Virus record (IMG/VR): IMGVR_UViG_3300030207_000882
Span: 1 to 31,209 of that record
DNA length: 31,209 bases
DNA from: a virus
Taxonomy: Duplodnaviria > Caudoviricetes
Direction: 5' to 3' (one strand)
The notes under the pieces are model-generated. The model had not been told where the DNA came from. It ran no database searches and saw nothing but the letters and a program-made list of their open reading frames with translations. The translations under genes were made by a program, and so were the position numbers. This document shows positions 3,310 through 26,545 of this stretch, piece by piece. Every line of letters begins with the position of its first letter. The first letter of the stretch is position 1.

Positions 3310-3420
3310 TATACGTATATACACGAGTGCAAAATTGTATAGGTTGTAAAATTATTATTATATTATACTGTATTTATTTTAATATATAGTAAAGACAAAT
3401 ATCTATACAACCTTTACAAC
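3309..3420. promoter_or_regulatory. Non-coding AT-rich element flanked by 16-bp inverted repeats; candidate replication origin or operator
   Basis: TTGTATAGGTTGTAAA (3335-3350) and TATACAACCTTTACAA (3404-3419) match 14/16 as an inverted pair. The 53-bp spacer is about 89% AT. A perfect palindrome ATATACGTATAT lies at 3309-3320. Confidence 0.6.
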
Positions 3421-3451
3421 TTAATCAGCAACGTTTATCACTACCTATCGA

Positions 3452-4045
3452 GTGCCATTACCAGTGACCGTTATGGATGAAGATGTACAACATGAAGCAG
3501 AAATACGCCTTCTTGGACTCATTCTAGCACAGTCAGCATTAGTTGGAGTTTCAATTGGAGTCTTTGATGCTGAAGTTTGGTTGAAAAATACTACCCCTTT
3601 ACTGAATGGATTGACTTACGCTATGAGTGCATTCTTTGTACAAGGAATTGCTTATTACATGTTCAAAGTATTCTTTGAGCGTGGAATGAGAGAGCGTGCT
3701 AGAGCCACACAAATTGACCGTGACCGTAATTACAAATATCGTTCAATGCAACAGAATTTTGATTCGAGGAGGGCTGAAATGGAAATGCGTATCCAAGAAG
3801 CACAGTTAGAGCGTGAACTACGTTGGATGGAGGCTAATCCGGGTCAGATGCCACCTTCATGGGGTGTACCGGGTGGCTCTCCTTCACTAATAGGAACTTA
3901 TGACCAAGAAAGAGTAGATGGTTCTCGTATTCCTACACATGAAGCAAAAAGTCCAGCACCATTGAGTTTAGGTGTCTCAGAAGAAGATATTCCTTTGAAG
4001 AAGGATGGAACACCTGACAAGCGTTATCAAAAGAAGAATGAGTGA
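3452..4045 (+). CDS. Membrane protein with 2 predicted TM helices and a coiled coil
   Basis: Hydrophobic LLGLILAQSALVGVSIGVF and LTYAMSAFFVQGIAYYMFKVFF, followed by an R/E/Q-rich helix and C-terminal KKDGTPDKRY. The start may be 3464 or 3473. Confidence 0.75.
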   Translation: MPLPVTVMDEDVQHEAEIRLLGLILAQSALVGVSIGVFDAEVWLKNTTPLLNGLTYAMSAFFVQGIAYYMFKVFFERGMRERARATQIDRDRNYKYRSMQQNFDSRRAEMEMRIQEAQLERELRWMEANPGQMPPSWGVPGGSPSLIGTYDQERVDGSRIPTHEAKSPAPLSLGVSEEDIPLKKDGTPDKRYQKKNE

Positions 4046-4054
4046 GGCATATGT

Positions 4055-4309
4055 ATGGGCCGCATCTTCAAAACGCCTTCTGATAACGCCACTGAGGAAA
4101 CTCTACGAGCCATTCACATAGCAAATACTGTAGACACAACCTATGAAAGGACATGGGGTTGGATTAAAACTATTATAGCGTCTATTATATCTGCTTTGAT
4201 TATTAGTGCTATAGAACTTTATAATCCCGAATACAGTCTTTGGGAATCTACAGTGGAGTGGTTTGTTCAGAAATTATATGACTTAGCCGAATGGCTAAAG
4301 TGGTGGTGA
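4055..4309 (+). CDS. Small membrane protein
   Basis: TM segment WIKTIIASIISALIISAI and a Trp-rich amphipathic C-terminus. Confidence 0.7.
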   Translation: MGRIFKTPSDNATEETLRAIHIANTVDTTYERTWGWIKTIIASIISALIISAIELYNPEYSLWESTVEWFVQKLYDLAEWLKWW

Positions 4310-4319
4310 AGGTGAGTTT

Positions 4320-5045
4320 ATGGTTGAACCTGCGGGGACAGCATTGGTTGGCGCTGCCGTGTGGGGTCAACATATTTTCAACTCATGGCGACCAAGACGA
4401 GTTGGAATCTACGGGGCTCCTAAAGTTGGAAAAACCACCTTAGACCGATATATGACCACCCCCGGTGAAATGGAAGCGATACCGGATGAAGAGCGCACTG
4501 AACATGGGCGAGTGCTTGGGTTAGTAGGTCCTTACAGGATGCCTAAACCAACTAGAAAGAGAATTGGTTGGAACGGGGAAAAACGGGTCGTTTACTCTTC
4601 TGATATAGGAGGTCAAGAAAGATTTTGGAATCTATGGATAGAAGATATGGTGACTAGAAAAGTAGAGGCTGTAGTCTACATGTTTGATGATAGAGCGTTT
4701 AAGGGTGGAGACGACGGACTTCAACAAATAGCGGGATTCAAATTTTTAGTTGATAGATTAATCAATAGAGATTATCGTTATCGTTCTTTACGTTCAAGAC
4801 TTCGAGGGCGTAAATATCATCCTAGAGTGGTCATGTTAGTCGCTAATAAGGCAGATAGGTTCTTTGATGAGACTGCTTCTAAATTATGGCATGATGGTAG
4901 AATAGGTGAGCATAAAATATTCGACCCATTTCGTGACGACTTAATTAGATTACAAAAAGCAGGTATTCCTACTAAACGCTCTTTCATGGCTACACGCATA
5001 GGATGGAATGTAGAAAAAACCATGTTAGCCTTACTCACCTCATGA
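4320..5045 (+). CDS. Ras-superfamily small GTPase (Arf/Rab-like)
   Basis: G1 GAPKVGKTT, G3 DIGGQERFWNLW, strand AVVYMFD, G4 LVANKAD, G5-like FMAT and terminal GWNVEKTM. GGTGA RBS. Confidence 0.85.
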   Translation: MVEPAGTALVGAAVWGQHIFNSWRPRRVGIYGAPKVGKTTLDRYMTTPGEMEAIPDEERTEHGRVLGLVGPYRMPKPTRKRIGWNGEKRVVYSSDIGGQERFWNLWIEDMVTRKVEAVVYMFDDRAFKGGDDGLQQIAGFKFLVDRLINRDYRYRSLRSRLRGRKYHPRVVMLVANKADRFFDETASKLWHDGRIGEHKIFDPFRDDLIRLQKAGIPTKRSFMATRIGWNVEKTMLALLTS

Positions 5046-5080
5046 TAGACCTTTTAGGAAGCCTTTTAATCAAATAGTAT

Positions 5081-5275
5081 ATGGTGACAAGCATGGGGAG
5101 GAACGTTGTCACCACTACTTTACACGCTGCTTCTTCTAAAACCAATAGTTTGCGTACCACTGTTCCCATGTGGGTAATCAATCAATTTGGTTTGAAAGCA
5201 GGTGACGATGTTAATTGGAAACTTCATCTCAAAGATGGTGAGATAGTGGTGATTATGTCTCCTGTGGAGGCGTGA
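5081..5275 (+). CDS. AbrB/MazE/SpoVT-family swapped-hairpin DNA-binding protein
   Basis: SLRTTVPMWVINQFGLKAGDDVNW matches the archaeal AbrB pattern SlxvTiPxxvxxxlgLkxGDxvxw. The start may be ATG 5093. Confidence 0.75.
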   Translation: MVTSMGRNVVTTTLHAASSKTNSLRTTVPMWVINQFGLKAGDDVNWKLHLKDGEIVVIMSPVEA

Positions 5276-6207
5276 AAATGTTTACTAGGCAACCTCAAGG
5301 TAACCTTAATACGGCACAAATTCCAACTTTAGCAATGCAGGGAAACGACCAACTCACACAGGCAGCATTGGCTGAGATGGTAGCCGCTCAACAGGGTATG
5401 CAAGAAGTCGCAGCATCTCAAAATATAGAAGTTCCAAAAGTCAATTTTTTCCCTAGTAGACACCCTGACCCGAGAAAGGCTAGAAGGCAAGACATCAAGC
5501 AAGCGTACAAACTATTACGACCTGCTAAACGTAGCCGTTTTTCTCCCTTGCGATGGTTTGGTAATAAATATCGCTATGACAAAGATACTGCTGTTTGTGT
5601 AGTAGATGGATGTAATGTTGCTGAGTTAATCAAACATGATAATCTATACATGCGTATTTGTGATGAAGATACAGGTAGAAGCCTATGGGAAATGTACTGG
5701 CAGAACCCAGTAACAGGTCAACCTGAGGCATTTATCGCACGTGATAAAGTAACAGGTGGTAAAAAAATGAGAGGTACTTATTGTCCTGAACACCTTCATC
5801 TTTATCACTTATTGACAAAATGGGAAGCAGAGGAAGAGAAGCAAAATGAAATGAATCCTAGTAGACTTCGTGACAAAGTGAAAAAGGGAGTCTCTATCGT
5901 TACTGTGCCTATTTCAGCAGTCAAACAAAAGGACCCTCAACCTGCTATGTTACAGAAATATGAGCCATTTTTTGCTGAATTAGAACGTGACTCAGGTAAA
6001 ACAAAAGGAATTAGTATTCTGAATTATAAGAATCCTGAAACTGGTGTAAATGACGTTACTATGGTTGTGTTTGATTTACGCATTTTCCAAAATGAATTGA
6101 ATCAAATGAACATACCTACTGCTGAGTTCCAAGCACTTTTGAGCCAACAGCAGAGTTTAATTCAGCAGCCAAACCTTGATGTTGAAGGAACCACTGGGCA
6201 GGGGTGA
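5272..6207 (+). CDS. Hypothetical protein with a probable split Zn finger
   Basis: CVVDGC ... YCPEH putative metal ligands; GTGA stop/start overlap with the neighbouring genes. Confidence 0.7.
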   Translation: MKMFTRQPQGNLNTAQIPTLAMQGNDQLTQAALAEMVAAQQGMQEVAASQNIEVPKVNFFPSRHPDPRKARRQDIKQAYKLLRPAKRSRFSPLRWFGNKYRYDKDTAVCVVDGCNVAELIKHDNLYMRICDEDTGRSLWEMYWQNPVTGQPEAFIARDKVTGGKKMRGTYCPEHLHLYHLLTKWEAEEEKQNEMNPSRLRDKVKKGVSIVTVPISAVKQKDPQPAMLQKYEPFFAELERDSGKTKGISILNYKNPETGVNDVTMVVFDLRIFQNELNQMNIPTAEFQALLSQQQSLIQQPNLDVEGTTGQG

Positions 6208-6872
6208 GCCGAATGTATCAGTTTAATCAATCTCAACCGTCTGTAGGGCTAAATCTATCAGCCACTGGTGCTCCAGCGATGAATGCCCAACAGCCTCAAT
6301 TTACTGGGCTAGGTGCTCCTCAACAAACTCAACAACCAAATCCGTTAATGGCTGGGATTCTACAAGGAGCAGGTGTGCAGCAACAATATAATCAGGCTCA
6401 ACAATATGCTCAGCAGCAACCCTTTAGACCACCTAGTGAAATGGAGTTGTTGAATGCTTTATTACAATCACAAAATCCTCTTCATCGTTTTATTTCATCA
6501 GGTGGTTTAGGCTCTTTGATAGAACTTTTAGCAACAGCAACCACTCTTTCTATGCTCACTGTTTTGAAGGATGCTAAGTTCATAATTAATGATGATGAAG
6601 GTGAGGCAAAAATTGACATGGCTTCTTTACCTGATAATCTCAAAACACTAAGTTCTGAAAATGTCTCTATGTTACTTAATAATCTAGTCAATAACAGCAC
6701 ACAGACTATTCAGGCTGCTGAGGCGCAAAGACAGCAAATATTAGCACTCTCTCAACAATCAATGATGGGTGACGCTCTTCAAGCAGCGTTGGCGGATGAA
6801 GGAACAATGCAGAAAATAGGCGGTGGTATTGGAAGTGTCGCTCGCTCTTTCATGGGTCTGCCTAAGCAGTAG
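6204..6872 (+). CDS. Hypothetical Q-rich protein with a hydrophobic helix
   Basis: Low-complexity Q/P N-terminus and GGLGSLIELLATATTLSMLTVL; translationally coupled to the upstream gene. Confidence 0.7.
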   Translation: MSRMYQFNQSQPSVGLNLSATGAPAMNAQQPQFTGLGAPQQTQQPNPLMAGILQGAGVQQQYNQAQQYAQQQPFRPPSEMELLNALLQSQNPLHRFISSGGLGSLIELLATATTLSMLTVLKDAKFIINDDEGEAKIDMASLPDNLKTLSSENVSMLLNNLVNNSTQTIQAAEAQRQQILALSQQSMMGDALQAALADEGTMQKIGGGIGSVARSFMGLPKQ

Positions 6873-6880
6873 GTGATAAT

Positions 6881-7132
6881 ATGGGGTTAAGTGACAGTAC
6901 AGATGACCTTTTTAGAGGATTCAATATGGCTAGCACACAAGTGTTAGCACCAAAACGCTCAGTAATTACAGACATGATAATGGTTCAATTCATCAGTATG
7001 ATTATCACTTTCACGTTAATTTTGTTTATCAAAGGCGGAGAATTACCAACTAGTTCTGTTTCAGTTTTCCTTGTTGGAATCATGATTGCTTTCATGGGTC
7101 TTGGTAGTGTTTATGGGCGTATCAGTAAGTGA
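6881..7132 (+). CDS. Small 2-TM membrane protein (holin-like topology)
   Basis: MIMVQFISMIITFTLILFI and VSVFLVGIMIAFMGLGSVY with a basic C-terminus; GGTGA RBS. Confidence 0.7.
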   Translation: MGLSDSTDDLFRGFNMASTQVLAPKRSVITDMIMVQFISMIITFTLILFIKGGELPTSSVSVFLVGIMIAFMGLGSVYGRISK

Positions 7133-7360
7133 CCACTTACCTAAAGGACACTGCATTGATGGAGAAAGTGCTTTGATTTTTACAAAGCATCCGCATTTTT
7201 TACAGACATCTAGTGCTTTGAAGAGAAAAACGCAGTCGTAGCATTCATTCATTCTTTTAATGTAAAGCGCTTTACTGACTCTGTTTTTTCTAAGTACATC
7301 TTTAGTGGTTTTTGCTATGTCAGAGGCTTGCTTAGGTACTCGCTTAAACCGTCTGAACAT
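7061..7360 (-). CDS. Small Cys-rich protein (DUF6171-like phage family)
   Basis: RMNECYDC...CKKCGCFVKIKA...CPLGKW pattern common in marine viruses. This is the only convincing minus-strand gene. Confidence 0.65.
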   Translation of the reverse strand: MFRRFKRVPKQASDIAKTTKDVLRKNRVSKALYIKRMNECYDCVFLFKALDVCKKCGCFVKIKALSPSMQCPLGKWSLTDTPINTTKTHESNHDSNKEN

Positions 7361-7421: not shown

Positions 7422-8108
7422 ATGGGACCAGCGGAGCGTGTCACAAAACGTTCATGTCCGTTTTGTCAACATCCTAGCCGTGACGAATTAGAACAGGGTC
7501 TTTTACTGGGTGAAATATCTCCAAAACAACTAGATGAAGACATGGGTTGGCGATATAACACAACCGACAGGCACTATAGAAATCACATGGGACAGTTTCA
7601 CATGGGTGCTAATCCGCAGTGTAAAATTTGCACACACCCACAACGTGCTGAGTTTGAGCAAAGATACTTTGCAGATGGGTCAGAATCTGAGGTAATTGCT
7701 GTTGAACTTGGAATACGTGAAGAGTCAGTATATCATCACATGAAACATCATTTTCAACCGTTAGTTCAAAGAGCGGCAGTGTCTGAGGTCACAATGGTTG
7801 TAGGAGAGGAAATGAGTGCGCTTAGGTCAAATGTCGAATTACTCAACCATAAATTGTCAGAATTGCTCAGCGAGGGAAGTGTTCACGAAGACGGTTTTGT
7901 CAGGGATGCCGTGTCTCTGCATAAAGAAGTCAGAGAGTCAATAAAGGACTTGATGAAGATGCAAGAAAGTTGGGGACCTACTACTGAAAACGGTGAGGTG
8001 CATAACACAATTAACATTCTCAAAGTTGAACTCGGTAAGGAAAGCCCTGAATCTTGGGCAAGAATTAGAAAGAAATTGGTTGAACATGTAGAGGAGGAAG
8101 TATTATGA
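7422..8108 (+). CDS. Tandem Zn-finger/HTH DNA-binding protein, probable terminase small subunit
   Basis: Two repeats of CxxCxHPxR...HxxxH (CPFCQHPSR..HYRNH and CKICTHPQR..HMKHH), a coiled coil and a C-terminal beta strand HNTINILKV. Confidence 0.55.
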   Translation: MGPAERVTKRSCPFCQHPSRDELEQGLLLGEISPKQLDEDMGWRYNTTDRHYRNHMGQFHMGANPQCKICTHPQRAEFEQRYFADGSESEVIAVELGIREESVYHHMKHHFQPLVQRAAVSEVTMVVGEEMSALRSNVELLNHKLSELLSEGSVHEDGFVRDAVSLHKEVRESIKDLMKMQESWGPTTENGEVHNTINILKVELGKESPESWARIRKKLVEHVEEEVL

Positions 8109-21106: not shown

Positions 21107-24100
21107 GTGCGAGAAGATGCTACTGACTGGTATCTAAGAGCACGTTCAGATTTACTCAAATCACTGCTCGACGGTTACGATTACCACAACTCTATTGCTA
21201 ATTACATCTTAGCAACTGAGAACTTAGAAAACCACGGCTATGAAATTATCAAAGGTCATAATGACTTTTTTTGTGACATGGTCGTAAAAGAAGAGGAGAA
21301 GTCTATTGAAGATATGATGGCTTCTGAAAGTCGTAAAGAGAGAAGGATAGGTCGAACAAAGAGAGCAGAGGCCGAGCGAGGTAGAATGACCGAAAGAGGT
21401 CGTGAGAGGGAGGAATCAAGACTTATCTTTTCGGGGTCGGGTGCTGAAACCATACCTAATCATCACTGGAAGGGGAGGTTTCCTGAATCGTCTATACATG
21501 ATTTTACTAGTCTTTGGCCCGATGCTCCTATGAAAGAAGACTCACTTTATTCAGATACTCACCGTTTCCAAAAAGAGCATCATCCTTTGTTAAATGTTAA
21601 TTCCGTTACTGGTTTACCAGCGTATATTGAAACTCTAAGAGATTTTTATTTACCCACTGAACCCGGTGCTCAATCAATGGCTGAGAGGGTAAAAAAACAT
21701 GAGTCAATGCATGAGAATCATTTTAGCAATAAAAGCAATCCTAGTGTTATTGGTATTAAAGATGACATGACGGGAGAAGTTACTCATCCTTTCAAAGGTC
21801 CTCTACACGATTCTCATTTACACGATTTTTACTTAGACAACCTTGAGACTTGGAAAAAAGACAATCAGGATTTAGTTAACTCAATCACTAATGAATACGA
21901 CAATCCCGCTGAACAAGATTTTGCTATAGCGCAAGCACACATGGATGATGCTATTAAGGGTTGGATGAATGAGGAACTAAATGATAATGGTCTAAGAACT
22001 TCATTAGGCTGGGGTGGTTACAATTTTGGTCTTGAGTTTCTTTCACCCTCTCAGAGAGAAAATGTTATCACTCATCTTATGGAGAAAGGGTCTAACTCAG
22101 AAGCAGCGCAGAAAATAAACATAGATGGTGGTAAGGGTAGGATTATTTCAGTGGGTCGTGTCAAAAGAAACTTGGCTCATAGATTCTCACCTGAGTTCTT
22201 TAGTGAAATGAGAAATATATTACACACATCTCAGAATCAAAGAAGTCATGTAGAAGGCTCTGATGATTTTCGTGATATAACTGACCATGATGCTGAATTA
22301 CTTTTCACTGCCTTACATGAGGCTGAACATGAAGCAGGTGGGACTATGGCTGATGCTATAATAGCAGCATTAAATGAAAAACACAGCCCTGAAGAGGGTG
22401 AACCTCCCCTTGATAATTTAAGAGCACTACGAAGTTTAGGTGAAGCAAAGTCTGCTTTAGATTCGCCGCAGGTAATCTCTAATTTGATGGATAGAAAAAT
22501 TCCTAGTAATTCTATAAATAAAGCAGCATTACTTCATCTACTAGGGTTAAAACAAACTAAGGATGGTTATGAAGCATCTGAAAAAGGTCATTTCGATGGA
22601 ACTAACAGACCTTTAGGAGTTAAGGATATAGAAGAACTTGATAGAATGATAGTTCAAGGTAGAGTTGGTTTAATTAGAGATAAACTGATTAGAAACGCTC
22701 AGGCTCATAGTCATCTTGGATTCAACGGTCCACATGAGGATGATATACCTGAAGATGAGGCTGATTTATGGATGAGAACGGAACATGGGCCTGTGGGCGT
22801 AGGGGCAATTTTCCATCTCCCTTACATTGGTGGTGGTAACGGAAGAAGTAGTCTATCAATGCTTGAAATGCTACACGACTGGATGCCTAAAGATGAAGAT
22901 GGTAATAGTCTGATTGGCTCTGTAACGCCCGACGGTAGAATAGTCATAAACCGTAAAAATACAGGACTCTTTGGCTCGGTGATTCCTGTTGACCGTACTG
23001 GTGCTTTTTCTAAAGAAATGAACCCACATGAAACACAGTCTTTTTGGGATGTGTCTGCTAAGAGAAAAGAGGGCGCTAGAGGTAGATTCAAGGTTAGGAA
23101 TACTAAAAATAATGAAATGGTCGGGCACTCTACTTTAGACCCTGAGGTCGCAAATATACTTGGGAGACTAACTTATGATGAGAGAGTAGATTTGATTGGC
23201 TCAGGTCGTACTAATCATCATTTAGGTTATCATACTTCTTTGGGCCATAATCCTATAATGTCAAGAGGAAAAATATTGGAGGGCACTGAGACTAGAATCC
23301 GTAACACTAGCCTTCACTCACACAACTTACACACTCGATTAGGTAGGAACTTCCCTCCTCACGCACCTGCTAAAACTAGGTGGTTGAAAGCGCAAGATAT
23401 TAAGAATCCTAAAAATAAAGATGCACGCACTCACATAGGAGATGCTAGAGTTTGGGATGCAACACATAAACTGTCAGGTAAAGGTGTGAGTGATTTACCT
23501 GAAAAGTCTAGCCCTGTATTTCAAGCAAAGTTAGAAAGTGCCTTAGATGAAGTTAATCATTTAGAAGACCAAGTGAGTATGTACGCTGGAGCAGAAGATG
23601 AAATGCCCGAAGGTCTAATGGAAGAACTAGTGGCCGCTAGGTCAAACTTACATAATCTTGAGGAGGTTGGTGGGACTACAATGGCTTCAGGTAGAGGGTT
23701 TACCTTTGGTCATGACCAGTTTGACATTAAAGGAGATGCCGATTTAGCAGCAATTACTCAAATGGCTATGATTCTAAAGCCAATTATGGAAAAAGCAGAC
23801 CCTGAGGCATTTGACCCTAGTGATAAGTTAAAGTTCCTTGCTAACTCATCACGTCTTTTTTATGATGCAAATAGAATGCTAATGATAGCACCACACAGTG
23901 CTCACGGTCTTACAACACATGGACCGGGGATAGACACAGAAAAAATACCATCTGCTAGCGCCACTGCATCCCAAATGATAGGAGACACAATAGTTCCTCA
24001 TCGTAATATGATGATAAGCACTATACAAAATGGTGTTGATATTACTAGAGATATGAGTGTTCAAGAAGTTATGACTGCTCTTGGTTTTGACCACGATGAA

Positions 24101-26545
24101 GATGATGGGCTATACACACTGGAGCGAGCAAGGTTACATGAGCAACACAAAGAACTCGCTCAGAAAATCATAGACAGTGTGCCTGAAGAGGGGGGTCTAC
24201 GTGCTCTAACGCATGGGTCATTACTTAGCACTGGGATGGGCTTTCACCCTAGAGGTCAAGATATTTCATTAGACCATGAACTTCATACTAACCACATGAC
24301 TGCTTTTGAAGAAGCCTATGATAATGAGCCAGTAGTTCAGCGCTACAAAGAGATGGCTAGAGAAAAAGCATCTACTGGTAGAGCATCCCAAAGAGGAAAA
24401 GAAACTAAAGGTTTGAATGATTGGTTCAAAACTAATTATCTCGGTAAGTTAGGTGTTATTCCTAGACTTATGAGCGGTCCTTACTCTAATGAGGCTGAAA
24501 AATATGGTCTAATGTATCATGACATGGGCAAGGTAGCAGATAAAAGTCATAATAAAAGCAAGGTCAAGAGTCTTATTCATAATGTAATTACGGTAGACCC
24601 TAATCTAGTTGATAGGAGTTTAATTGCTAATGAAACAATAGATGGTGAAATGACTAACATCACTAAATTAAACAGAAGAGGTGGTAGAGAAATACACCCT
24701 GCTACTTCTTTGAAAGGGGCAGCAGTTGGAGATTACTTCACATCAGGGCGTATGGAAATGGCTTATCCGATGTCACCTACAGTTGGTATAGAATGGAATG
24801 GCTCTGACTTTGTTGCTGGGACCAATGGAGCAAATCAACAAGTCTTACACTCAATCAGCGAACAATCACTAAATGATATACACGGTGAAGATTTAGTTCA
24901 GCAGGTTATGGCTTTACCCGGCGAATTTCAAAGAGGGCCGTTGTCTCAACAGCCAAATATTCTATTAGGAGGTAGGGCTGAAAGTGATGAGCCTACTGAC
25001 ATAGGTAAATCACTGATGGCTTTGATGGACCCTGATGCCTTGTTGAAAGGTGAAGATGGTAAGCCTTTACCGATTCTTCCAATGCATCGCATCTTTTCAA
25101 TCAAAGACTTTGAAGCGTTACGAGGCTTCAGTGGGGAATGGGTAGTTTCTATTCTTCCTGCTTCTGAGAGGTTTATAGTTCGTAAGAAGGGTAGTAGAAT
25201 CACAGCATATGATAAGCATGGTGATGTTGCTTTATCTCCTGAAGATAGAAAACAATTCAGGGCTTTGAATGACAAAAACTGGATGTTAGATGCAACTAAG
25301 AGTGATGATGAAATTCATATCGTAGACATAATTGAGTATGATGACTCTAATATCGCTGACATGACTGTTAGAGAGAGATTGAAAGTATTGAGGGGGCAAT
25401 TCGACAGTCATGAACATGTCATAGTTCCCGGTCCTCATAACTTACGTTTAACAGATACTGAGGGCTTGAATGAAGTTGTCGAGAGTTTGAAAGAGTCAGG
25501 AAAGAGGATGTTACTACGTGATGCAACTTCAACATACATGCGTGGTGAGCGCAGACACCCTAAGTGGTTTTTACTAAGACCTGATAAACAAGTGACTCTT
25601 ATCATTCTTGATGTTAGAGGTAAGGGGCCATTTACATATCGTTTAGGTGCTGGACCTTTAGATGCAGAAGGGTTTGGTAATAGAGGAGTAGAATACGAAG
25701 GGCAATCTTATCTTGACGTAGGTACTGTGAAGAGTCCTAAACCGTTTGAAGAAGGAGACTTCGTTAATGTCAAAGTATCAGGTGTAAAATCTAGGAATAA
25801 GAATGGTAAAACACTCTATGATGTTGCTACCTCTAGGATAGTATCAGAGGCGGAGGATGCACCAGCCTCACTTGAGACGCTTTCATTACTCACAAAATCA
25901 CATCCAGTGATACCAGTTCAGTTTTCACTAGATGTCAGTCACAATAAACTCACTCTATCATTCCCCGAAGTAGATGATGTGGTTTACAAAATGGAGAGAA
26001 ACTCTCATGGTATGTGGGCTCATTCCCCTTATTCTACATTGGCTGAGTTACAGAAAAATGAATACCCTATACTATTGGCTGAGAGCCTACGACCTTTATG
26101 GAATCAAGCAGCATCTCTGATGATTAAAGGTGCAACACCTGATGTAGAAAACAACGCTAGAAGCATGGCAGACCCTGAGCACCGTAAAGAATCTGAAAAA
26201 GAGTCTGCTGGAATTATAGATGAAGATGATGAAATGAACATTCTAAAACCAAATCAAATGGTAAAGACATTGACTCGTATTGCTGACCTAATGGATAAAC
26301 TAGCAAAGGAAAAAATGTCAGGTAGAACCAGTGCTCAAGGATTTGGCATAGACGTTGGAGACGGTACTGAGTCTCCTAGAGGGCCAACTTCATTGAATAG
26401 CGAACAGTCATTACCTGATTGGGATATGTTGAAGCGCCCAACAGAAGACCCGGAGGAAGAATACCCAGCAGTTCGTAGCAAGCGACTAAAACGCAAAAAT
26501 AGAGAGGAGTCTAACGTTTATGAAGCAGAATCGGAAAATGAGTAA
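21107..26545 (+). CDS. 1812-aa protein with a C-terminal degenerate ATP-dependent DNA ligase-like domain (NTase plus OB fold)
   Basis: WMLDA, IVDIIEYDDSNIADMTVRERLKVL and MLLRDATSTYMRGERRHPKWFLL echo ligase motifs III, IIIa, IV and V. The motif I Lys is absent. Confidence 0.75.
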   Translation: MREDATDWYLRARSDLLKSLLDGYDYHNSIANYILATENLENHGYEIIKGHNDFFCDMVVKEEEKSIEDMMASESRKERRIGRTKRAEAERGRMTERGREREESRLIFSGSGAETIPNHHWKGRFPESSIHDFTSLWPDAPMKEDSLYSDTHRFQKEHHPLLNVNSVTGLPAYIETLRDFYLPTEPGAQSMAERVKKHESMHENHFSNKSNPSVIGIKDDMTGEVTHPFKGPLHDSHLHDFYLDNLETWKKDNQDLVNSITNEYDNPAEQDFAIAQAHMDDAIKGWMNEELNDNGLRTSLGWGGYNFGLEFLSPSQRENVITHLMEKGSNSEAAQKINIDGGKGRIISVGRVKRNLAHRFSPEFFSEMRNILHTSQNQRSHVEGSDDFRDITDHDAELLFTALHEAEHEAGGTMADAIIAALNEKHSPEEGEPPLDNLRALRSLGEAKSALDSPQVISNLMDRKIPSNSINKAALLHLLGLKQTKDGYEASEKGHFDGTNRPLGVKDIEELDRMIVQGRVGLIRDKLIRNAQAHSHLGFNGPHEDDIPEDEADLWMRTEHGPVGVGAIFHLPYIGGGNGRSSLSMLEMLHDWMPKDEDGNSLIGSVTPDGRIVINRKNTGLFGSVIPVDRTGAFSKEMNPHETQSFWDVSAKRKEGARGRFKVRNTKNNEMVGHSTLDPEVANILGRLTYDERVDLIGSGRTNHHLGYHTSLGHNPIMSRGKILEGTETRIRNTSLHSHNLHTRLGRNFPPHAPAKTRWLKAQDIKNPKNKDARTHIGDARVWDATHKLSGKGVSDLPEKSSPVFQAKLESALDEVNHLEDQVSMYAGAEDEMPEGLMEELVAARSNLHNLEEVGGTTMASGRGFTFGHDQFDIKGDADLAAITQMAMILKPIMEKADPEAFDPSDKLKFLANSSRLFYDANRMLMIAPHSAHGLTTHGPGIDTEKIPSASATASQMIGDTIVPHRNMMISTIQNGVDITRDMSVQEVMTALGFDHDEDDGLYTLERARLHEQHKELAQKIIDSVPEEGGLRALTHGSLLSTGMGFHPRGQDISLDHELHTNHMTAFEEAYDNEPVVQRYKEMAREKASTGRASQRGKETKGLNDWFKTNYLGKLGVIPRLMSGPYSNEAEKYGLMYHDMGKVADKSHNKSKVKSLIHNVITVDPNLVDRSLIANETIDGEMTNITKLNRRGGREIHPATSLKGAAVGDYFTSGRMEMAYPMSPTVGIEWNGSDFVAGTNGANQQVLHSISEQSLNDIHGEDLVQQVMALPGEFQRGPLSQQPNILLGGRAESDEPTDIGKSLMALMDPDALLKGEDGKPLPILPMHRIFSIKDFEALRGFSGEWVVSILPASERFIVRKKGSRITAYDKHGDVALSPEDRKQFRALNDKNWMLDATKSDDEIHIVDIIEYDDSNIADMTVRERLKVLRGQFDSHEHVIVPGPHNLRLTDTEGLNEVVESLKESGKRMLLRDATSTYMRGERRHPKWFLLRPDKQVTLIILDVRGKGPFTYRLGAGPLDAEGFGNRGVEYEGQSYLDVGTVKSPKPFEEGDFVNVKVSGVKSRNKNGKTLYDVATSRIVSEAEDAPASLETLSLLTKSHPVIPVQFSLDVSHNKLTLSFPEVDDVVYKMERNSHGMWAHSPYSTLAELQKNEYPILLAESLRPLWNQAASLMIKGATPDVENNARSMADPEHRKESEKESAGIIDEDDEMNILKPNQMVKTLTRIADLMDKLAKEKMSGRTSAQGFGIDVGDGTESPRGPTSLNSEQSLPDWDMLKRPTEDPEEEYPAVRSKRLKRKNREESNVYEAESENE

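Follow-up and report, generated by a model that had tools for sequence, protein, structure and literature searches.

We know of no holin system that includes a GTPase, and the pR1SE plasmid-vesicle system, an archaeal mobile element and not a tailed virus, reportedly has small GTPases linked to membrane trafficking. In the ArvA-ArvB-ArvC (OapABC) system of Euryarchaeota, the GTPase ArvA drives vesicle formation, and its zinc-protein partner has been proposed as a GAP (PMC10927574). An N-terminal amphipathic helix is a defining feature of the Arf family (bioRxiv 10.1101/2024.02.28.582541). Mobile regions of Asgard archaea carry Arf GTPases, according to the portions of PMC11529989 available to us; like the block described here these are archaeal mobile elements with trafficking-linked small GTPases, although they are not tailed viruses, and those portions report no partner genes in common with it. 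For archaeal tailed viruses the exit machinery has been called “completely uncharacterized” (PMC10791045). Magroviruses, which are among the most abundant viruses of the ocean, have a head-tail module closest to that of haloviruses and genomes of ∼100 kb (PMC5434244).

We analysed a 31,209-nt stretch of viral DNA (the window; IMG/VR record IMGVR_UViG_3300030207_000882) that is a 29% fragment, yet holds the whole of a block of genes around a small GTPase. TerL, portal, protease, and MCP genes are present, complete relatives measure 96–108 kb, and the MCP is 34% identical to that of HVTV-1/HCTV-1, as expected of a magrovirus; its hosts are likely the Poseidoniales marine archaea, following the description in PMC5434244. 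The features of the block, here lettered A to H, are as follows, with clade I denoting the window's own clade and “core” the genes shared by all five clades discussed below.

3310..3451, no strand: AT-rich intergenic stretch of 142 nt, 24% G+C; in clade I probably the block's promoter
3452..4045, + strand: A, predicted two-transmembrane (2-TM) protein whose cytoplasmic part is charged and coiled-coil-like and whose tail is basic (KKDGxPD); core
4055..4309, + strand: B, predicted single-TM protein, in 80/80 clade-I loci; core
4320..5045, + strand: C, small GTPase, Arf-like but divergent, extended by 26 residues at the N-terminus and carrying a basic insertion; core
5081..5275, + strand: D, AbrB/MazE-like regulator (PF04014, E 7e-6); clade-specific insertion
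5272..6207, + strand: E, soluble protein with a Cys/His site in two parts that likely binds zinc; assigned to no known family or fold; core
6204..6872, + strand: F, protein with a Q/G-rich N-terminus and a conserved helical core, in 80/80 loci; candidate scaffold; core
6881..7132, + strand: G, small, holin-sized predicted 2-TM protein; clades I, III, and V
7061..7360, − strand: H, convergent DUF6171 gene (PF19668, E 4e-8); variable insertion outside the module

A preliminary description of the window had proposed a contiguous, partly coupled run of seven genes, and all seven ORFs, A to G, are indeed found on the + strand over 3452–7132, with gaps in order of 9, 10, 35, −4, −4, and 8 nt, two of them overlaps. 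It had placed all clear TM proteins of the window in this run; among 36 window ORFs only A, B, and G clearly reach a Kyte-Doolittle 19-mer cut-off of at least 1.5, with F borderline at 1.51. The AW/VLVK leader, which it held to be missing from these genes, matched 0 of A–G and five other window ORFs when searched with a regex that approximates this motif, undefined in that description. The AT-rich stretch stands as the left boundary, and for the window's clade we take it to be the probable promoter of the block. Over the upstream 150 nt, median G+C is 31% in 75 relatives (18–44%), compared to 43% for the loci; a TATA-like TTTAW occurs at −40..−18 in 26/60 distinct upstream regions of the block, upstream of D in 17/56, and upstream of B, C, E, F, and G in just 0–7 of 65–70. 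A sigma-70 scan (13 vs 11.8) and a terminator scan were at chance level. The convergent gene suggested as right boundary serves as such in the window, where H overlaps G by 72 nt, but not across relatives: H is present in only 50/80, and in 25 of the 30 relatives that lack it the next + strand gene starts 30–54 nt after G, so this boundary is not general.

Gene order is preserved in 80/80 close viral loci of clade I, and the GTPase is found in 8/8 terminase-anchored records that are at least 90% complete. Clade-I synteny alone is little proof of a unit, since the downstream genes I and K also occur in 80/80 of these loci (and L in 79). The core of A, B, C, E, and F recurs, however, in four further and more distant clades, with GTPase identities of 31–40%. 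The block lies before gene I and terminase in clades I and III, between the capsid and likely neck/tail genes in clade II, beside a thermosome-like gene in clade IV, and after glycosyltransferases in clade V; A-B-C-E-F remain together while all flanks differ across clades II, IV, and V, and core genes that adjoin each other in clade I are separated by median gaps of 1–9 nt. In the tailed clades, the block lies within the morphogenesis region or opens it. Judged by gene content and order, the block has been passed down as one piece in five distant lineages, a strong result for the proposed co-conservation, and the conserved unit is by the same comparison a five-gene core (six with G) and not the seven genes first suggested. 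The AbrB-like label of D is sound (26.4 bits against PF04014, above the curated cut-off of 24.7), but the gene is restricted to the window's clade, where it was found in 74/80 loci by tblastn and in 80/80 by an HMM built from the same loci; it was detected in 0 of the 80, 13, 4, and 9 loci of clades II, III, IV, and V, respectively.

By its motifs and predicted fold, C is a Ras-superfamily small GTPase, as it was first labelled. It has G1 (G32-T39), T60, G3 (D95IGGQ99), W106, and G4 (N176KAD), and the NKxD and switch-II Trp are present in 140/140 distinct sequences from clades I–IV. For its model (pLDDT 70), VIA Z was 8.8–7, and the top Foldseek rows were all Rab/Ras/Rho-type, with E from 3.5e-5 and TM-scores of just ∼0.3–0.4. 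Single-sequence searches of Pfam, PHROGs, and PDB were blank or weak, and the Arf link was reached only with a deep profile, which had Asgard ArfR 8OUN as its best PDB match (E 8e-9) and 15/30 members of which matched Pfam Arf; similarity ranking favours Arf, while fold ranking ties it with Rag, G-alpha, and Rab/Ras. Like members of the Arf family (Asgard ArfR 8OUN/8OUM and 8OUK/8OUL; Arl8), C has G1, G3, and G4, a DxGG followed by the switch-II Trp, and an N-terminal extension of apparently amphipathic character; unlike them, it is ∼50 residues longer with insertions, has no Trp before the G3 Asp and a variable catalytic Gln, and is encoded by a virus together with orphan partners of its own. 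The full Arf signature, which we take to be wDxGGQxxxRxxW and which can be seen when C is aligned with 8OUN and Arl8, is found in none of the 140 sequences: the final Trp is present in 140/140, the leading Trp in 0/140, the Gln in 94/140, and the Arg in 12/140, all of clade III. C thus appears to be a divergent Arf-like protein bearing only part of this signature. At its N-terminus, the 11-mer hydrophobic moment is 0.55–0.69 in the four clades tested, compared to 0.39–0.43 for shuffles (sd ∼0.10); the 18-residue moment is above shuffles in clades II–IV and at shuffle level in the window's clade (0.29 vs 0.27). The model renders residues 9–14 as a strand at low confidence, N-terminal confidence being 50–63. 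The basic insertion has a net charge of +9 in the window, +9 to +10 in clades I, III, and IV, and +2 in clade II. C tops the 13 tallied genes in conservation, with a median identity of 75%.

Among the predicted membrane proteins, A is present in 78/80 clade-I loci, both misses being truncated. Of the two TM segments first described, one is seen in the window protein at a cut-off of at least 1.5; at a cut-off of at least 1.3, orthologues show two in 45/67 of clade I, 59/59 of II, 11/11 of III, and 1/2 of IV. By hhalign, A is related to clade III (P 91) and clade IV (P 96), with clade II not significant, and clade V was reached by HMM (E ∼1e-15); the KKDGxPD tail occurs in 58/77 clade-I sequences and in none of clades II–IV. 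No Pfam family was found for the window protein, nor any consistent family. B has one hydrophobic segment in 63/68 sequences, hhalign P of 77 to clade III and 44 to clade IV (II not significant), and equal size and position in all five clades. G occurs in 80/80 clade-I, 12/13 clade-III, and 7/9 clade-V loci, with two segments in 67/67 and 11/11 sequences; searches of clades II and IV did not recover it. Neither B, G, nor the block as a whole matches a holin or endolysin family in Pfam or PHROGs; since holins are diverse, this is compatible with a holin-like role for B or G.

None of the partners matched a known unrelated function. E, present in 80/80 clade-I loci, has the split zinc-finger arrangement recognized earlier, C109...C171-x2-H174, whose parts are 62 residues apart and which is invariant in 71/71 clade-I sequences; zinc binding is likely. 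Clades IV and V retain only part of this Cys/His set. For E, hhalign P was 100 against clades III and IV and 76 against clade II. Its model (pLDDT 78) gave a best VIA Z of 5.4, no PDB match at E≤0.001, and no usable ESM Atlas match; one unnamed viral model matched (E 9e-5). Several weak winged-helix rows for residues 223–300 (Z 3.4–4.0; Foldseek E>1.9) are within the chance range. We also considered E as an ArfGAP, presumably recognizable by a C4 zinc finger whose last ligand is followed five residues later by an arginine, and rejected this: that position is His in 71/71 clade-I and 12/12 clade-III sequences, clade II having Arg or Met there, and E has no ArfGap Pfam match and no significant fold match of any kind. 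Some clade-II members show C-x2-H-x4-R spacing. F is held together by hhalign across clades (I–III P 99, II–III P 88, II–IV P 96) and has no PDB or consistent Pfam match.

The earlier idea of a GTP-switched membrane machine is supported in part, by co-conservation and a C protein with apparently membrane-binding, Arf-type anatomy, although not with seven genes. The block is probably a membrane-acting, GTP-switched unit; that exit is its job we propose with rather less confidence. From the gene content, co-inheritance, G motifs, and Ras-superfamily fold described above, we infer how a late, GTP-switched machine could remodel or open the host membrane for progeny exit, a reading we favour tentatively. 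A, B, and where present G would embed themselves in the cytoplasmic membrane and designate a site there. GTP-bound C would free its putative N-terminal amphipathic helix, as Arf proteins do by an interswitch toggle, and dock at that site, aided by the basic insertion. E, always the next core gene, might act as an activating or exchange factor that times the C cycle; help in trans is plausible because C lacks a conserved catalytic Gln. F may oligomerize into a coat or scaffold, upon which the membrane would be bent or breached; D would regulate transcription only, and in the window's clade only. Like a holin-endolysin cassette, the block has small TM proteins (B and G) in a late region; unlike one, it has no family match of either kind. 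Some findings sit less well with this reading: in the window's clade the 18-residue moment of C is at shuffle level, and the model has a strand near the N-terminus at low confidence; G, the most holin-like gene, is missing from clades II and IV as searched, and neither the C nor the E profile matched HVTV-1, HCTV-1 (both lytic haloviruses), or vir335 (0/3), so tailed archaeal viruses are able to lyse without the module. If exit is nonetheless its job, the mechanism of lysis or budding would be unlike holins, pyramids, or ESCRT. The six-gene, 3.7-kb block is a concrete exit candidate, open to expression and assay with no need to culture the host. Arf-type switches have been treated as hallmarks of eukaryotes and Asgard archaea, and a deeply diversified viral Arf-like family would bear on the spread of such switches and their role before endomembranes. 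We are doubtful of the broadest form of the proposal, in which the block supplies the exit machine so far missing for marine archaeal viruses, an Arf-type, GTP-timed membrane-opening complex that brings a regulator and scaffold of its own, common to tailed magroviruses and to a second, probably tailless lineage in the same hosts.

That lineage is clade IV, ∼110-kb elements in which no HK97 capsid or T4-like terminase was detected, and which encode an FtsK/HerA-like ATPase alongside a conserved run of unknown genes. Conserved proteins of 214, 294, and 314 aa are encoded beside the ATPase; the clade's candidate capsid proteins had no PDB sequence match, and the Atlas gave one unnamed viral cluster. 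These elements would suit an alternative that we consider unlikely, namely that the block remodels vesicles or envelope during infection, as ArvA does, and does not lyse the cell, whether it sheds vesicles, takes receptors away (superinfection exclusion), prevents division, or provides membrane for tailless particles. Absence of the module from the related haloviruses suggests a host-specific need and fits here too, but exclusion genes are usually variable, and the high conservation of C argues against that particular role. ArvABC resembles the viral block in that its archaeal GTPase, for which membrane remodelling is demonstrated, bears an N-terminal amphipathic helix, as C may do, and in that its operon encodes a zinc protein downstream (PMC10927574); the viral block adds two to three predicted integral membrane proteins and F. 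Against a direct counterpart, ArvB (PF09846, DUF2073/OapB) was matched in 0/1 in the record, with the control matched in Haloferax and Methanosarcina, and the ArvC zinc ribbon (DUF2072) in 0 of 23 E proteins at E≤1.

We likewise think it unlikely that the block forms a site of replication or assembly anchored in the membrane by A, B, and G, with viral DNA retained by E and the A tail and the site turned on and off by C. The basic tail and insertion, the likely zinc site and winged-helix rows of E, and the presence of the module in elements without a detected HK97 capsid are consistent with such a site, but the tail is confined to clade I among clades I–IV, the insertion loses most of its charge in clade II, the winged-helix rows do not exceed chance, and in tailed clades the block lies among late structural genes. 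That the genes are mere neighbours in a conserved late region, the GTPase acting alone, e.g. in translation or signalling, is improbable: I, K, and L are about equally syntenic in clade I and clade-II A and B are not significantly similar to their clade-I counterparts, but the core stays united and closely spaced while its flanks change.

None of the papers found in our searches describes the module. A tblastn search with two GTPases against 50,697 phage records gave no match, and a second homologue search had only close relatives among the matches listed. P0129 had matches in metagenome contigs and none in viral contigs. A GTDB scan with clade-I-specific patterns retrieved three short contigs, from bins of three unrelated taxa and all in viral gene order, which we read as misbinned viral DNA and not as a cellular origin of the block.

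Seven plus-strand ORFs at 3452-7132 of the window are all present as the preliminary description had them, with intergenic gaps of -4 to 35 nt, and encode a predicted two-TM protein (A), a predicted one-TM protein (B), a GTPase (C), a regulator-like protein whose AbrB character is borne out by an AbrB/MazE domain (D), a protein with a split Cys/His site (E), a Q/G-rich protein (F), and a small predicted two-TM protein (G). They hold a real, deeply conserved, and apparently undescribed viral module around an Arf-like GTPase, for which any function is a prediction. The idea that the window's clear TM proteins all lie in this block is right for A, B, and G, with F borderline (19-residue hydropathy of 1.5 or more, among 36 window ORFs). 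Of the boundaries first drawn, the AT-rich upstream gap (24% G+C) holds, but the convergent DUF6171 gene occurs in only 50 of 80 relatives (best 80 of 146), and in 25 of 30 relatives without it the next plus-strand gene begins within 54 nt of G. In the window, G and this convergent gene overlap tail-to-tail by 72 nt (7061-7132). Upstream TATA-like words are seen for A in 26 of 60 distinct relatives and also for D in 17 of 56, unlike B, C, E, F, and G (0-7 of 65-70), so that D may have its own promoter.

Within the window's own clade (clade I, sampled as the best 80 of 146 relatives of C), the order A-G is kept in all 80 loci, as the synteny check had called for. tblastn finds B, E, F, and G in all 80, A in 78 (the two others being truncated loci), and D in 74, the latter rising to 80/80 with an HMM built from those same loci. 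With the terminase as an independent anchor (65 records searched among the best 80 of 175 terminase loci), the GTPase is present in 37 of 65 records and in 8 of 8 that are at least 90% complete; in the 28 negative records no more than 8.2 kb of sequence lies upstream of the terminase, as compared to a GTPase-terminase distance of 7.8-10.7 kb in 21 positives, against which three negatives are borderline. Because the downstream flanking genes I and K are likewise in 80/80 loci (best 80 of 146), clade I alone is no proof of a unit. Three copies of the viral block (L081, L082, and L083) sit on short contigs in GTDB bins assigned to Maricaulis, Parvibaculum, and a Promethearchaeati archaeon; these are likely misbinned viral DNA, and could pass wrongly for an Asgard GTPase.

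Against 1.84 billion representatives, a profile search produced 83 matches, some of them full-length GTPases 31-40% identical to C, and gene neighbourhoods were compared for four of these (clades II-V). Clade III (13 loci) has the order A-B-C-E-F-G, with HMM matches to A in 12 loci, B in 10, E in 13, F in 13, G in 12, and D in none. Clade V has A-B-[acidic 256-260 aa]-C-E-F-G; in nine of its 11 loci, mostly short (two short fragments were excluded), HMMs match A in 6, B in 5, C in 9, E in 8, F in 7, G in 7, and D in none. The additional clade V gene has a very acidic tail (L189:9229-9999, L198:9217-9999), and Pfam returns nothing for the L198 copy. Clade IV has A-B-C-E-F (4 loci, 2 distinct sequence sets). 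For clade II (best 80 of 140 loci), the clade-I HMMs match C only, and ORFs of fitting size and place are found for A in 77, B in 78, E in 75, and F in 73, the misses falling at contig ends except in L123. Profile-profile comparison relates clade II E to clades I and IV (P 76-93) and F to III and IV (P 88-96; P 35 against I), but gives only P 0.2-13 for A and B against other clades, so that their orthology is judged by position, size, and topology. What argues most for a functional unit is that the block moves intact while its flanks change: in clades I and III it precedes gene I; in clade II it has capsid genes on one side and likely neck/tail genes on the other; in clade V it comes after glycosyltransferases; and in clade IV its neighbour is a gene that we take, from its motifs, to be thermosome-like. 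The proposed seven-gene unit thus survives in its A-B-C-E-F part, which recurs across clades, while G is found in three of five and D in one; on comparative sequence grounds, a five-gene core A-B-C-E-F (six with G) is the better description of the predicted unit. More distant GTPases of the C family also exist (P0157, P0160, P0202, and P0203; 22-32% identity), and in clade III a terminase match (G003:C1:42397-43965) contains two stops (1 TAG, 1 TAA), reflecting a split gene, a frameshift, or an intron.

C has intact G1, G3, and G4 motifs, and NKxD plus a Trp seven residues after DxxG in all 140 distinct sequences of clades I-IV; the Trp that opens the Arf signature is found in none of them. 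Its catalytic Gln is kept in 59/71, 30/54, 5/13, and 0/2 sequences (clades I, II, III, and IV). The predicted model (pLDDT 70) gives weak yet consistent matches to Rab/Ras-type structures, with Rag, Arl8, G-alpha, and Asgard ArfR tied at Z 7.3-8.8 upon structural re-ranking. Among solved structures, 8OUN (E 8e-9) is the best match of a deep profile; artefactual P-loop repeats come next, ahead of Arl8, 8OUM, Rab33B, and Arl3. The Asgard ArfR preprint cites 8OUN twice. Among 30 family members, Pfam at E<=0.1 matches Arf in 15 and Roc in 19, and the automatic JGI label for some relatives is already "GTPase SAR1 family protein". The N-terminal extension has amphipathic character across 11 residues (hydrophobic moment 0.55-0.69 vs 0.39-0.43 for shuffles, sd about 0.10), falling to shuffle level over 18 residues in the window's clade, all among related rather than independent sequences. 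C appears Arf-like by anatomy, and should not be classed as an Arf family member.

For A, B, F, and G, searches of Pfam and PHROGs point to no consistent family; a short segment at the C-terminal end of F looks amphipathic by eye in most clades. The E model is of fair confidence (pLDDT 78) and matches no solved fold, only one unnamed viral model (E 9e-5). Clades I-III retain the split Cys/His site of E, which is degraded in IV and V. Identification of E as ArvC (DUF2072) or an ArfGAP was rejected, with neither family match nor motif.

Gene content, co-inheritance, motifs, and fold are documented here; for the mechanism, we tentatively favour a late, GTP-switched membrane-remodelling machine serving virus exit, in which membrane binding, the roles of the partners, timing, and exit itself are all predicted. 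An ArvA-like vesicle or envelope role, after the euryarchaeal vesiculation operon (PMC10927574), and a membrane-anchored site of replication or assembly both seem rather unlikely. That the block genes have no common function, as clade I taken alone would allow, is improbable given the changing flanks. A search of freely accessible literature found no paper linking magroviruses with a GTPase or reporting an Arf-like GTPase encoded by archaeal viruses, though annotation tables in supplements may label the gene; the main texts of PMC11706807 and PMC10160649 contain no instance of "GTP".

The window record (31 kb, estimated 29% complete) encodes terminase, portal, prohead protease, and major capsid genes, the last product 34% identical to its counterparts in haloviruses HVTV-1 and HCTV-1; near-complete relatives are 96-108 kb. 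It fits the magrovirus description in PMC5434244, from which we infer a Poseidoniales host. Gene I (7422-8108), with two Cys/His repeats, a weak HTH match, and a helical tail, lies upstream of the terminase in 80/80 clade-I (best 80 of 146) and 12/13 clade-III loci; we guess that it is the small terminase subunit. An HMG-CoA lyase-like gene (93-968; PF00682, E 2e-17), in 27 of 80 related loci, is a candidate auxiliary metabolic gene, and a 1812-aa ORF between portal and protease (21107-26545) has no Pfam or PHROG match.

Neither the C nor the E profile matches HVTV-1, HCTV-1, or vir335; two positive controls were recovered. Clade IV includes two records of another kind:

G001 (loci L180-L186): 110 kb, estimated 79% complete
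G002 (loci L177, L187, and L188): 46 kb, estimated 33% complete

Neither incomplete record matches the window's capsid protein or the T4-like terminase family phrog_38. PolB, primase, and resolvase were found in G001 (37 scanned of 89 ORFs of at least 150 aa), together with an FtsK/HerA-like ATPase of 238 aa; its top PHROG bears the label "terminase large subunit", but the match covers only 170/555 positions. G001 and G002 share this ATPase as well as a block of unknown genes (best three 49-85% identity, including a 214-aa stretch 85% identical), and one gene of the block has a relative in clade V. With PolB, a thermosome-like gene, and resolvase, and with neither an HK97 capsid nor a T4-like terminase detected, the two records resemble the unexplained "group D" of PMC5434244, which has PolB, thermosome, and resolvase but lacks a morphogenetic block. 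As judged from these incomplete sequences, they may be tailless viruses, in which case the module would follow the host, not the virion type. The minus strand at L184:11303-19933 encodes a 2876-aa protein with guanylate kinase, NUDIX, glutaredoxin, DUF7831, and DUF5824 domains.
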